A stretch of DNA of 64,000 bases, taken from IMG/VR virus record IMGVR_UViG_3300024259_000012. The stretch is one strand, 5' to 3'. Positions 1,645 to 64,000 of the stretch are shown here, in pieces. Position numbers and translations under genes: made by a program. Below the pieces are notes generated by a model. The model was not told the DNA's origin, did not search any database, and was given only the letters and a program-made list of their open reading frames with translations. The stretch comes from a virus. How positions within the stretch are numbered: the stretch's first letter is position 1; each line of letters starts with the position of its first letter.

Positions 1645-2127
1645 TTAATTGTATTCCAATGTTATGGTAAATGCTCCCGAACCATTACCGGCGGTTGCAG
1701 TATACGCACCCGTTGCTTGACTTGACAGTGTTCCTAAATGTCCACCAACTCACAATTTATATCCACTTGCACCCAGTGTAATATTTCCACCATTAGTTAC
1801 TGAAGTTGCAGATGCCTGTGTTGTTTCGTGACCATACATATTTGGTGTATAGGTCATCGTATTCGTTCCATCACCCAATGTTACCGTTGCATCGTGTGTT
1901 ACATTAACACCGACACCATTGCTTCCACCAACTGTAAATTCACCAATGGAATATGCTTGCCCAAGGTCGGTATGTGATACGTCTTTCGGGTCCATAATCG
2001 GTGTTGAAGTTGCTGATAGATTTCCAAAGTCAATATCAACATCTTTTGATAATGTTAATTCCGCTTGGACGTTCGCTGATACTTCAGCCGTTGCAGATGT
2101 TTGTGAGTATGCACCCACTGAAATCAA
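1645..2127 (-). CDS. DUF4402-like secreted beta-rich protein with in-frame TGA (1750-1752) read as Trp; 5' end uncertain or truncated
   Basis: SATA.VSA.V...L.L....DIDFG motif; frame stays open past TGA as KL*VGGHLG...GAY...FTITLEYN-TAA. Confidence 0.7.
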
Positions 2128-2174
2128 GATGACAGTTTAAGTTATCTAATTGATAATAATAATTTTGGTGTGTG

Positions 2175-2181
2175 ATAAATA
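2175..2181 (-). promoter_or_regulatory. Putative late-promoter motif TATTTAT (also 3640-3646, 4221-4227, 10087-10093; TACTTAT at 11478-11484 and 52656-52662)
   Basis: Recurrent motif upstream of minus-strand transcription units that lack an obvious TTGACA -35 box. Confidence 0.45.
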
Positions 2182-2186
2182 TCAAT

Positions 2187-3200
2187 TTACGGGGTTAATT
2201 CATCCCTAATATGCGCCGTTGGAACTTTCTCAGTCAACTCTTGGATGGACTCCTCTAAGTTAATCGGCTTCTTTTTCTTTTTTGGTGGCTTGACATCGTT
2301 GACATCGTTGACATCATCGACCCCGTACATGGATTCTTTTTTCTTCCAAGTAAACCTATCAAAAAATGATTTCTTAGGTTGACCGTTATCATCATTCCAA
2401 TTTTCAAGCATCACCTTATTGGTTGCAATAACCAATACAATTGCAAGTGGGTCAAATACAAATATCAATATGAATATAAAAAATTTAACCACCGTGTCAA
2501 CTGAAGTATCAAATGCCTGAGCAATAAAAATCACCGGACCTACATCTGCGCCGGTCTCAATCAATTCAATTTTCATATCAGACATCTGCTGTTCAACTCT
2601 TGATAGTTTAACAGCGACGCTATCCATATTATCATTGGCCTTTTTAACGTCAATGTCCAATGTTGCCAATTCCGGCTTATACCGATTATATATTTTTGAA
2701 CGTTGAAGTCTATCATAATACCGAGTAGTATCGGTTATGGTCATTGAAGCAATTTCATCGTTTCTATTTTCAATAGTGTTTTGTCGCTCCGAACGTAATG
2801 ACTCCGTTGTAATATTAATCCTATCTCGGTCATCATACAATCGTTCCTTGGTCTGCTCCAGCACCTGCATCTTTGATGTAATTTTATCAAGTCCGAGCGT
2901 GGCACCCTGATATGCATTTGATAGATATCCAAAGATTCCCCCGCTTGTGATTAATACAAGAACCACCAATGCTATCGTCAAATAGCTTTTGAAAGCGATG
3001 TTTATTTTGCTTCAGTATCTATACAGAAATGATGCAGAGATTAGCTTCCCAAATTCAAGGCTTGATGCCATCACAATAATTTGTGTGGATGCACCTGCAA
3101 ATAATTTGGATAATCCAAATACAGAAAAGAAAGCCGCTGAGCCTGCAATCGAAAACGACGCAAGCATCATTAAGAATAAAAAGAAACGATTATTTCGCAT
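2187..3200 (-). CDS. Multi-pass membrane/coiled-coil phage protein; one gene with in-frame TGA (3012-3014) read as Trp
   Basis: Track ORFs 3012-3200 and 2187-2981 are in the same frame, joined by SFLYRY*SKINIAFKSYLTIALVVL; FDPLA motif near C-terminus. Confidence 0.85.
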
Positions 3201-3383
3201 TTAATAGTCTTCTAATAGCTGAATCATATTTTCTAAATATTCTAATTCTTTGCCTATTTCTACAATGGCCGCCTGCAGTGCTCCATTTTCATATTGGGCA
3301 CTAATTTCTATTGTTGCGTTTAATAGAGATTGAATTCTGTCTATTTTGTATTGTAACCTGTCTGTATCCATGATATTATTTCC

Positions 3384-3617
3384 TTATGCGTTTGCTAAGT
3401 CAGCACGATTGTATTCCAATAGTGAGATTAGCGTTCTATCATTTAAGGGATTGCACAAATGCTTCTGAAGATTTTCACCATAAAATCCTAAGTGTTCAGT
3501 AAATTTAACATCTTTTAAGAACTCAATTAGGTTTTCATCCACGTTAAATATACTCGGTTCATTCATAGTGCCCCTTTCATTATAGGTATAATTATCAAAT
3601 TTCCCAAAAATGTACAT
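3384..3617 (-). CDS. Hypothetical protein
   Basis: ORF track; start probably at internal Met (MNEPS) after AAAGGGG. Confidence 0.55.
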   Translation of the reverse strand: MYIFGKFDNYTYNERGTMNEPSIFNVDENLIEFLKDVKFTEHLGFYGENLQKHLCNPLNDRTLISLLEYNRADLANA

Positions 3618-60897: not shown

Positions 60898-60905
60898 ACT
60901 CCCAA

Positions 60906-61487
60906 ATGAATTTAACGAAACACTTTTCAAATGGCAACATGAAGATTGGAAAAGACACCCTGATTTTTAACATGGGTTCTGCCACCACTTGTGTTGCTAA
61001 GGAATTAGGCTTGTGTGCGGTCGCCAAAGATTGCTACGCAATGAAAGCTGAAATTCAATATCCCCAAGTAAAGCCCTACCGTGACCGTCAAGAAATTTTA
61101 TGGCGTGAAACTTCAGCGTCTGAATTTGCTGAAGCCGTCGTTGGTATTGCCAGCCGCAAACGTTCCCCAATTAAATATCTCAGAATGAATGAGAGTGGTG
61201 ATTTTGCGAGCCAAGCTGATGTTGATAAGCTGACCATGATTGCCGTGATTCTCCGGTCTCATGGAATTAAGACTTACACCTACTCTGCCCGAAGCGACCT
61301 TGATTTTTCCAAGCTCTCTGAAGTGGCGGGAATCAACTTTTCAGGTTTCACCCAAGAGAACAATGGAAACTCCTTCAATGCGGTTGAAGTTTTCACTGAG
61401 GGTGGCATCCAATGTCGGATGGATTGTCGTGACTGTCACATGTGTAAGACTTCCCAAGGCATCGTAATTGAAGTTAAGAAACACTAA
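60906..61487 (+). CDS. Gp88-like Cys-rich protein
   Basis: GN.K, C......C.....CYA, R..ESGDF, Y.YS, C..DC..C..C. Confidence 0.65.
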   Translation: MNLTKHFSNGNMKIGKDTLIFNMGSATTCVAKELGLCAVAKDCYAMKAEIQYPQVKPYRDRQEILWRETSASEFAEAVVGIASRKRSPIKYLRMNESGDFASQADVDKLTMIAVILRSHGIKTYTYSARSDLDFSKLSEVAGINFSGFTQENNGNSFNAVEVFTEGGIQCRMDCRDCHMCKTSQGIVIEVKKH

Positions 61488-62665
61488 GAGGAGATTTACT
61501 TATGTCAATCAAAACCGCAAAAACACCTCGGGGCATGGCAAGCGCAGTTCATAAAGTCATATCCAAACTCCAGACGCAGATGGGCGGTTCGCCCCAATAT
61601 GTATATCTTTGGAGTCCAGATGAATCTGAACAACGGGGTTACGGAAAGAATTGGTCTGTGTGTTGGGAAGAAGGCCCGTATGAATGGGCTTACTGTGTAT
61701 CAGCGGGTGAATTTTTCGGTGGTGAGGAATTTGCCATTGAAGCTGGCCGCAAGGGCAACCCAACGTGGGAAGCGCAAATGCTTGAAAACGAGCATGTTTT
61801 CTGTGAACCATATACCAGTTATGTACTTTGCTTTTTTAATCCATAAAAGAGGTATGACATGAAACAAGAATTTTTAGATGAACTCAAAGCATTGCTTAAA
61901 AAGTACAATGCTGATATGTCGGCTGAACAGGAAATATACGAGGGTCCCATTGAGATTGAAGTGTATTTTCATGACACCAAGGATTCAATGTTCATTGGTA
62001 ATTATGTAGATAAGGAACCGACAAAATGAAAAACGTATACAATATAAGACATACCATTGATGGTCATCTCAGAACTTTTAGTACTGCCAAGAAAGCTTTC
62101 GCTTTTATTACGGACAGTCTTCATTTTACAGATGTCTTGACATTTGAAGGTGCGCAAATGACCTATGATAATGTAGCCGATGATATGAAGGACTATTCAA
62201 GTTCTGAAGTTTACGTGTATAATGTTGAGGGTTATTATGTCATCACTCGGAATCGGGTATGGTAACACGGATTACCATATGGGAACGGTATCACCCTGAA
62301 ATTGATTTGAAAACAAAGGTTGACTTGGGTGGATATTGGTCTCACAATCATATTAGCAATGGTTGGGAATTTGGATATACTCCGGAACCAAAAGCGGCCT
62401 CTCAAAAAAATGCTTGGGCGTCCGGATTATGGCGAAGTAAGTTTGGGTTCCTTCATAACCATAAGGTGATTTTACCTAAAGTTTCTTAGGTCAATTCATC
62501 ATTCGTTCTTCTAACGTATCTTCGGGCAGTTCATGCCTACCAACAACTTCTAAATTTGGGATAGCACCACTTGGGCATTCGCTTTTAGCATAAAGTTCAT
62601 CTCCAATATAATGACAAAAAATAGGACATTCTTTGCACATCTGAATTTTTTGATATTTAGTCATT

Positions 62666-63019
62666 TTATGTGATATTAGCCGGAAGAAGTCCAACGCCCT
62701 GCGATGCTGTTACGACAATTCCTTGATGATAACGAAGTGAGGTGTTGTATTGAGTTGGTCTATTCTTTGGAACTGTGAAAGTTGTGGTGTATCCAACGGG
62801 TGCAACCCAACTTGATTTTGCCTTGGGGAATTTAATCGCTAAATTACTGAACATCTCGTGAAGGTGGTCCATTGTTATTGCATCTGCATTATACGTTTGG
62901 ATGGATATTCCCATCCAATGGTGCTCACACTTTGAAAAATCTTTATTGTAGCCTGTAAGCTTGCCATTAATCATATGTCGCTTGCACTTGAGGCATTCTC
63001 TAATCTGTTTGTACGCCAT
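62666..63019 (-). CDS. Dispersed YKQ-type microprotein with C-terminal extension
   Basis: MAYKQIRECLKC...MING. Confidence 0.65.
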   Translation of the reverse strand: MAYKQIRECLKCKRHMINGKLTGYNKDFSKCEHHWMGISIQTYNADAITMDHLHEMFSNLAIKFPKAKSSWVAPVGYTTTFTVPKNRPTQYNTSLRYHQGIVVTASQGVGLLPANIT

Positions 63020-63670
63020 ACTGCTCCCTTACTAAATGTATCAGTCCTGTGAATATTGCACCAATCACCAAGATATCAAAAATTGTGAATGTCAGTAAAA
63101 ATGGCATTGAGCTTGCATAGTCCGCAAATTTAGTGAACATACCGTTCTTAAATGCGCCCTTGTAGGCCACCCATAGCATGAGCAAGGGTAGGCTATCACT
63201 TTGTAGTTTGCTAAGGTTTAAGACCATGTGTTGCCTCTTTAAATTCATCATGTGATACACACTTGAAGTCTTTGGAGCACGCTTGCTCATTTACGGTAAG
63301 TGGGATGAGACTGCCTATACGTTCTTCACCTGGATTATTAAGAATAACCTCATAGTAATCCTCATGAATTTTGACGCACGCCGCCTCGGCGGTGCAAGAC
63401 CTGCAGACCCAAACTTTTTTATATCGGCTAAGCAAGGATATCCACCGATTCTAATTTCTTAGTCTCAGTAGCGTCGGAAAATTCAGCGTCTTGAATCCTA
63501 TCACAAAAATACAATTGCTGTATCTTGTCATTTTTTATAGTGACTTCATAATTTCCAGTCCGTGTATAGACTGCAATGTTGTGCTCTTCTATGTATGGAT
63601 AAACACGTAGTATTTGATATGCTACGCCATTAATATTCATAACTTTCATTTGTGATGTAACCTTTTTTAT

Positions 63671-64000
63671 TTATTGTCCTGCTACTGCTCCACTACTGCT
63701 GACAATTAAGTATATAATACCCACAATCGTAACAATGCTTCCAACTCCTGGGACTCAGGCATACTTGATAGTAGAATACAATTTGGGCAATATTCCATCC
63801 TTGTCCGATGTGTCTTTTACTATTTTCTCAACGTCCGCTTTAATGAGAGATATGTTACTGCTCATTCCATTGGTGACCTTCGCCGTGATTAGTTTTAACT
63901 CGCCGGTCTGAACCTTCAGTTCATCAAATAGCTGAGTATTGACCTTCGTTTGTTTTTCAATAGATGTTATCAATTTATCATTTGAAGTGGCTGTTGCCAG
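63671..64000 (-). CDS. Coiled-coil protein with C-terminal TM (holin-like?), in-frame TGA 63755-63757 read as Trp; 5' end beyond window, 3' end uncertain
   Basis: ...LYSTIKYA*VPGVGSIVTIVGIIYLIVS. Confidence 0.55.

Follow-up and report, generated by a model that had tools for sequence, protein, structure and literature searches.

Can a single phage genome read TGA as an amino acid in some of its genes and obey it as a stop in others? The question is raised by a 64-kb stretch of viral DNA, IMG/VR virus record IMGVR_UViG_3300024259_000012, which was analyzed over its whole length and is referred to here as the window. An earlier reading, made from the nucleotide sequence alone, had proposed that six genes in the window run on across 11 in-frame TGA codons, that many other genes end in TGA, often with the terminator overlapping the next ATG, and that the code switches during infection, with UGA acting as a lock on a subset of proteins. 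Our analysis leads us to regard partial stop-codon recoding as the probable explanation: UGA would specify tryptophan in a minority of genes and would elsewhere be either absent or a normal terminator, often within ATGA overlaps.

The window, which has a GC content of about 40% and contains phage-type genes and many small open reading frames (ORFs), is the left 64 kb of a large uncultured marine phage. Contigs with 99.9 to 100% identity to it were present in many seawater assemblies and sequencing runs, RNA libraries among them. Overlapping contigs with 99.98 to 100% identity extended the sequence to the right by about 35 kb, to approximately window coordinate 99,200, where the right-hand contigs end at a common contig break; the window and this extension together amount to about 99 kb of phage DNA.

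Reading frames that continue across TGA

Frame-exact translation bore out all 11 in-frame TGA codons, each with an open frame on both sides, and the six genes that contain them, designated A to F (Table 1), all stop at TAA, as had been claimed for the five whose ends were clear from the sequence. Homologues or profiles cross three of the 11 sites. An exhaustive HMMER search with gene B yielded 3,921 homologues, most of which align from about residue 3 to 10 to past residue 260; a Pfam DUF4402 match in gene A (residues 56 to 159) crosses the TGA at codon 126; and a match of gene E to PHROG HNH families (residues 89 to 173) crosses the TGA at codon 149. A word-indexed homologue search with gene E gave no match.

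The distance from each TGA to the nearest codon at which translation could restart provided a second line of evidence. After nine of the 11 sites, ATG is absent for 22 to 77 codons and a start codon of any kind is absent for 11 to 55 codons, the exceptions being 48146, where an ATG lies six codons downstream, and 11223, which an ATG follows directly. Same-frame neighbors split by TAA or TAG served as a control (n = 16): an ATG lies 1 to 10 codons past the stop in 15 of these pairs, the 16th having a 75-nucleotide spacer, and a GGAG-like site stands before most of the restart ATGs. Homology and restart-codon distance were relied on because codon usage alone could not separate the TGA sites from same-frame neighbors. 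A strict codon-usage scan for joined ORFs recovered six of the 11 TGA sites together with one false site (19354) and also flagged 16 same-frame TAA or TAG neighbors, and a loose version of the scan returned pure noise.

Taken site by site, support for continued translation is strong at 3012, where the TGA stands on an invariant tryptophan column and most homologues cross the site; at 1750 and 52043, which are crossed by the DUF4402 and HNH matches, respectively; at 10995, which is followed by 146 open codons without a start for the first 55 or an ATG for the first 77 and where the protein has a C-terminal zinc ribbon; and at 48146, the second TGA of gene D, which sits between two CxxC pairs. 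Support is moderate at 48068, 52469, 52316, 52265, and 63755, where it comes from the continuity of the ORF and the absence of a restart codon for 11 to 43 codons. Site 11223 is ambiguous, since the ATG immediately after it makes a stop followed by a restart possible. No variants were found at four TGA sites in four seawater runs, the reads containing no TGG there, and contigs from RNA libraries cross 10995 and 11223 with TGA unchanged.

The setting of these genes is varied. Gene A has TTG as its only start, without a Shine-Dalgarno site, and may be degenerating, because TAG and TAA interrupt a signal-peptide-like stretch on its upstream side. The start of gene B is coupled (TAAATG) to an upstream ORF of 56 codons, and its other tryptophan codons, TGG at codons 268 and 285, both come after the TGA; in public code-11 calls the gene appears as a 259-residue fragment that starts 3' of the TGA. 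A strong terminator (11516-11543) lies upstream of gene C, and gene D has the Shine-Dalgarno site AAGGAG. Gene F starts about 48 nucleotides past the window end, at position 9602 of an overlapping contig (L008:9602), and has a C-terminal hydrophobic helix after its TGA. Gene E is directly preceded by GAGTTTTAW repeats. This motif occurs in 10 copies in the window, against 1.9 expected, and all copies fall in two clusters, one at 49225-49350 in a 620-nucleotide ORF-free region and the other at 52492-52595, directly upstream of gene E. The repeats could be regulator-binding or origin repeats, and the cluster upstream of gene E, with its four TGAs, may mark a distinct control region.

Table 1. 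Recoded genes A to F, followed by TGA-terminated features and the tRNA array of the window; fractions after sigma70-like sites are match scores
Feature	Coordinates	Strand	Codons	In-frame TGA (codon)	Stop	Remarks
Gene A, DUF4402-like	1645-2127	-	160	1750-1752 (126)	TAA	No TGG codon
Gene B, membrane/coiled-coil protein of a large family	2187-3200	-	337	3012-3014 (63)	TAA	
Gene C	10557-11372	-	271	11223-11225 (50), 10995-10997 (126)	TAA	C-terminal zinc ribbon
Gene D, zinc-ribbon-like	47987-48217	+	76	48068-48070 (28), 48146-48148 (54)	TAA	
Gene E, HNH-endonuclease-like	51884-52489	-	201	52469 (7), 52316 (58), 52265 (75), 52043 (149)	TAA	No TGG codon
Gene F	63671 to about 64048	-		63755-63757 (98)	TAA	
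TGA-terminated gene	50296-50727	-			TGA	End-to-end match to phrog_10415 (1-143 versus 1-128 of 129); one codon longer under code 4
Block with TGA stops	14872-19391	-				Sigma70-like site 19391-19363 (11/12) in front; RlaP, NUDIX, Rnl1; ATGA overlaps at 18237, 16330, 16151, 15963
Block with TGA stops	58097-60042	+				Sigma70-like site 58097-58125 (10/12) in front; small genes, most TGA-ended; ATGA overlaps including 58494, 58958, 59216, 59675
tRNA array, eight genes	200-1308	-				Asn (two), Thr, Pro, Gln-CUG, Leu-UAG, Arg-ACG, Gln-UUG; no UCA anticodon

TGA as sense codon and as terminator

The identity of the inserted residue was judged from conserved columns and from relatives. In an alignment of gene B with its homologues (26 sequences, 25 to 55% identity), the TGA at codon 63 stands on one of 13 invariant columns, and that column is tryptophan. 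To the right of the window, the same phage has further recoded genes with at least four more in-frame TGAs, two of them in a DUF5662 gene (L013:6228-6794). The first of this pair falls on W64, which is invariant among 20 homologues, and the second, at position 103, corresponds to tryptophan in the three closest relatives. Three of the TGAs are matched by TGG in a syntenic relative, the 162-kb NCBI metagenome contig L048 (74% identical; protein identities of 53 to 85%), namely the two DUF5662 sites and the one in a glycosyltransferase-like gene. In an epimerase gene, L048 carries an in-frame TGA of its own next to that of the present phage, whose site falls in a variable column, occupied in solved structures by Y, A, or H. 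At W63 of gene B, TGG also stands in L050, which is more distantly related (63% identity in that gene). On the strength of these alignments, TGA is tryptophan in the recoded genes, and glycine (code 25), cysteine, and selenocysteine are excluded because the TGAs stand on conserved tryptophan columns and are TGG in L048. Searches with ARAGORN and Rfam found no tRNA for selenocysteine, and no search aimed at selenocysteine insertion sequence elements was made. Among the candidate codes that were tried, code 25, in which TGA is glycine and which is known from phages of Gracilibacteria and Absconditabacteria, was rejected on the invariant tryptophan columns and the presence of 20 TGA terminators, and a selenoprotein reading was rejected on the alignment of TGA with tryptophan and the failure of ARAGORN and Rfam to find the corresponding tRNA.

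Elsewhere in the window, TGA is an ordinary stop. The 96 ORFs that score well on codon usage and contain no in-frame TGA end in TAA (58), TGA (20), or TAG (18), so that TGA terminates 21% of them. Thirteen of the 20 TGA stops occur in the context ATGA, the resulting ATG in most cases opening the next ORF, and four-base overlaps of stop and start, which only TGA can form, join 11 ORF pairs. The terminal TGAs listed in the sequence-only reading (33948, 50296, 57844, and the eight assigned to the two blocks in Table 1) match the ORF table, and the genes for LigA, Rnl1, and Rnl2 proved to be intact and to have no internal TGA. The claim of that reading that TGA serves within a single genome as sense, here for tryptophan, and as terminator, with the two uses in different genes, is supported. 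A TGA that never stops translation is not credible, because about a dozen rare tryptophan codons would then have to coincide exactly with downstream starts. Beyond the terminal TGAs, the next TAA or TAG follows at a median of about seven codons, and occasional read-through would cost little because the resulting tails are short. The end-to-end profile match of the TGA-terminated gene at 50296-50727 does not by itself discriminate between the two uses, since the next stop is a single codon further on.

As a sense codon, TGA is rare and unevenly distributed. It accounts for 11 of 225 tryptophan codons (5%) over 102 genes, and the 11 sites are clustered in six of those genes, an outcome of six or fewer genes having a chance probability of about 2e-4. 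Gene F, cut by the window end, was left out of a pooled set of 10 recoded genes, which comprised genes A to E and five genes from the right of the window; in this small sample, TGA occupies early positions among the tryptophan codons (P of about 0.008), and all 10 genes end in TAA. A uniform code-4 genome was also tried as a candidate and rejected, given that 21% of ORFs are TGA ended and TGA supplies only 11 of 225 tryptophan codons.

A proposed reader of UGA and the possible timing of recoding

Decoding of UGA as tryptophan would require a reader, which we infer to be supplied by the phage; the likeliest would be a tRNA-Trp with a UCA anticodon, situated in an unassembled tRNA region, or a tRNA hidden from standard finders. 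Production of the recoded proteins would then have to await this UGA-reading activity, as in the published model in which standard-code early genes precede recoded genes (Borges et al., 10.1101/2021.08.26.457843), and read-through of terminal TGAs in the presence of the activity would add short tails only. The sequence-only reading had seen no UCA tRNA in the window, and none was found there by ARAGORN, with default or relaxed settings, or by Rfam; ARAGORN alone was applied to the 35 kb to the right.

The tRNA array of the phage is situated about 200 nucleotides from the left contig end. At that end, window positions 1-127 (minus strand), continued at L001:17597-17716, form a 69-codon Cys-rich gene whose identical protein is encoded in unrelated smaller phage contigs (L055-L062). 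This gene is a break point in several independent assemblies, and reads diverge at position 127; the assemblies branch at the left end because unrelated phages also carry the gene, which is probably a shared mobile or recombination module. In two seawater runs, the array occurs as a variant in which a contig joins position 1283 back to 935 with 39 other letters between, which points to duplication or rearrangement inside the array. The relative L050 encodes 21 tRNAs on the downstream side of gene B, and a UCA anticodon is absent from all of them.

An RNA of about 200 nucleotides at 48474-48763 (plus strand) was considered as a hidden suppressor. It is flanked by a promoter-like site of the TTGACA type and a strong terminator (48733-48759) and contains the only clear orphan T-arm in the window, a perfect tRNA-type arm with a 5-bp stem and a TTCGAGC loop. 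A 7-bp hairpin precedes the T-arm, the acceptor-like pairing is imperfect, and the fold has a z-score of -1.9. No UCA loop or cloverleaf could be drawn for this RNA, and it had no match in Rfam.

A switch of code during infection that keeps the recoded genes under a temporal lock is plausible. Sigma70-like sites close to consensus precede three blocks with TGA stops, the two in Table 1 and one at 51011 (11/12), and the scan found no sigma70-like site of at least 10/12 before gene C, D, or E, but the recoded gene A is itself behind two such sites. Sigma70-like matches barely exceed those in shuffled sequence (78 versus 60 and 73 versus 57, or about 30% more). The motif TAYTTAT is present ahead of genes A, C, and E and of many others as well; it was not decisive and was set aside.

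Several observations weigh against partial recoding by a phage-supplied reader. No tRNA with the anticodon UCA, CUA, or UUA was found in the roughly 99 kb of phage DNA, and no release factor, tryptophanyl-tRNA synthetase (TrpRS), or tRNA-modifying enzyme was recognized among 46 proteins scanned against Pfam. The two sigma70-like sites in front of gene A score 10/12 and 11/12 (2185 and 2500), and gene E lies on the same strand between TGA-terminated neighbors, in the order 52724-52927, gene E, 50296-50727; since recoded and TGA-ended genes adjoin in this way and gene A is behind sigma70-like sites, a clean temporal split is not evident. Sense TGAs are followed by A or G and terminal TGAs mostly by A, and because of this overlap local context cannot tell a sense TGA from a stop.

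Other explanations were weighed against the same evidence. One that we consider unlikely is that the phage represents an early or deliberately partial stage of recoding, in which one UGA, as a rule at the first tryptophan codon or close to it, gates selected genes, UGA stays a frequent stop, and the reader is not a canonical suppressor tRNA. An altered host tRNA-Trp, a blocked release factor 2 (RF2), or an atypical tRNA-like RNA could serve as the noncanonical reader. If true, this reading would be at odds with the published scheme, in which stop-codon depletion is proposed to come first and reassignment after (Borges et al., 10.1101/2021.08.26.457843).

Also unlikely is the idea that no phage factor is involved and that the in-frame UGAs are leaky stops, read rarely by the host tRNA-Trp (CCA) and acting as strong attenuators of a few accessory genes. 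Natural UGA read-through inserts tryptophan in E. coli and B. subtilis, which fits the tryptophan-aligned sites, and leaky stops would also be in keeping with the lack of a suppressor tRNA in the 99 kb searched, with the continued frequency of TGA as a terminator, and with the presence of four TGAs in the gene for a potentially harmful HNH endonuclease. However, read-through of a few percent over four TGAs in one gene would yield essentially no product, and TGA occurs in sugar-pathway enzymes of the same phage as well. The recoded genes, moreover, end only in TAA, which suggests that termination at UGA is unreliable at the time of their translation.

It is improbable that the host itself reads UGA as tryptophan, through code 4 or the loss of RF2, and that the whole phage uses code 4, with the ATGA overlaps as relics. 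The short tails beyond the terminal TGAs would make read-through tolerable to such a phage, and cultured phages recorded under table 4 mostly infect code-4 hosts (PMC11210395). Yet a fifth of the well-scoring ORFs end in TGA, 13 of the 20 such stops in an ATGA context with a downstream start, which lends indirect support to a host with the standard code, and TGA makes up only 5% of tryptophan codons at 40% GC and is confined to six of 102 genes. The source of the phage is seawater, where code-4 bacteria are not known to be prominent.

An origin of the interruptions in pseudogene formation, gene splitting, or faulty assembly is very improbable and has been largely refuted. Gene A, with no convincing start and a broken signal-peptide-like stretch upstream, and the ATG directly after 11223 would fit such a history, but each of the 11 interruptions found in the window, like at least four more to the right of it, is a TGA, with TAA and TAG absent; several of them coincide with conserved tryptophan positions; identity is 99.9 to 100% in independent assemblies and runs; and the epimerase gene of L048 also has an in-frame TGA. 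Least probable of all is that TGA encodes another residue (glycine of code 25, selenocysteine, or cysteine) or that UGA is converted to UGG by mRNA editing, for although one site precedes VGG, one gene is Cys-rich, and Gracilibacteria occur in seawater, two TGAs stand on invariant columns of tryptophan and not of glycine or cysteine, L048 has TGG at three sites, no tRNA for selenocysteine was found, and RNA-library contigs keep TGA at 10995 and 11223, the last point being weak because DNA carry-over is possible.

Gene content and known recoding systems

Profile matches assign to the window an NAD-dependent DNA ligase (LigA), Rnl1- and Rnl2-type RNA ligases, a TET-associated glycosyltransferase, HSP20, NUDIX, and RlaP proteins, an FkbM-type methyltransferase, a cytidylyltransferase, and an HNH endonuclease. 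Some of these are grouped. An RNA-repair-type cluster at 13049-19344 (minus strand) contains Rnl2, Rnl1, RlaP (a polymerase-beta-family nucleotidyltransferase), and NUDIX genes and is adjoined at 19395-20024 by the gene for the FkbM-type methyltransferase. At 36065-38757 (plus strand), the TET-associated glycosyltransferase gene (36065-36940) is followed by a gene (36951-37340) whose small product has the N-terminal methylation motif of type IV pilins, and by several ORFs of similar size. Close matches to the window were found neither among deposited phages (INPHARED) nor in IMG/VR, a 655-residue protein used as a query for relatives in IMG/VR had no match, and exact-pattern scans of IMG/VR and JGI contigs likewise gave none.

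The DNA to the right of the window (about 64 to 99 kb; L008:1-10000, L013:1-8700, L017:1-9500, L065:1-7800) forms an island of about 30 kb for the biosynthesis of nucleotide sugars and polysaccharides. It encodes several epimerases or dehydratases, GT2 and GT4 glycosyltransferases, an aminotransferase, a radical SAM/SPASM enzyme, a sulfotransferase, APS kinase, and PIG-L, together with an Apyc1-like metallo-beta-lactamase and an NADAR (Phage_30_3) gene, and several of the island genes contain one in-frame TGA each. A UDP-glucose dehydrogenase-like gene at L013:8704-9474 has the N-terminal and central domains only (241 to 256 residues, compared with 317 residues in L048) and may be truncated or frameshifted in the present phage. 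A sugar-pathway enzyme gave no indication of the host, its identity being 37 to 45% across many phyla.

Phages that recode TGA to tryptophan in standard-code hosts were described by Borges and coworkers, who reported that recoding is concentrated in certain gene sets, close relatives that differ in code, and a detectable Sup-TCA tRNA in 35% of code-4 genomes (10.1101/2021.08.26.457843); Cook and coworkers found Sup-TCA in 15% of table-4 phages (PMC11210395). Phage genomes split into blocks of different codes were identified with Mgcod (Pfennig et al., 10.1101/2022.06.29.495998), and alternative codes are on record for deep-sea viruses (PMC10504277). In a fashion similar to that of the Agate and Jade gut phages (10.1101/2021.08.26.457843), TGA in the present phage aligns with tryptophan, some gene sets are recoded and others compatible with the standard code, and relatives differ by TGG or TGA at the same site; most of the gut genomes are without a detectable Sup-TCA tRNA. 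In contrast to them, this phage comes from seawater, its recoding is sparse (5% of the tryptophan codons of the window), with usually one or two early TGAs per gene, and TGA stops 21% of ORFs, compared with 2.7% in their standard-code Agate relative. The recoded genes of the window are accessory genes, and no operon for TrpRS and release factor 1 was seen.

The multicode crAss-like phages and the blocks defined by Mgcod (10.1101/2022.06.29.495998) share with the present phage the combination of opal-reassigned and standard-code parts in one genome; here, however, sense and stop TGA alternate from one gene to the next within a few kilobases, without large blocks, and there is no Crassvirales relationship, INPHARED and IMG/VR having given no match. 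Phages of Mycoplasma and Spiroplasma, whose hosts use code 4, also read TGA as tryptophan (PMC11210395), but they have no need of TGA as a terminator, whereas here TGA closes a fifth of the ORFs and takes part in ATGA coupling.

Standard gene callers split or truncate recoded genes, as the public calls do, and annotation of this widespread seawater phage therefore needs mixed-code handling. The phage provides a useful test case for whether stop-codon depletion must precede reassignment and for whether a single early UGA acts as a translational gate. Two codes in one phage genome are not new, and the present case is a new marine example, not a new principle, which extends TGA-to-tryptophan recoding from gut phages to a marine phage of myovirus size; what sets it apart from the known systems is its seawater origin, the low density and early position of its TGA codons, the recoding of accessory genes in this region, and a normal share of TGA stops.

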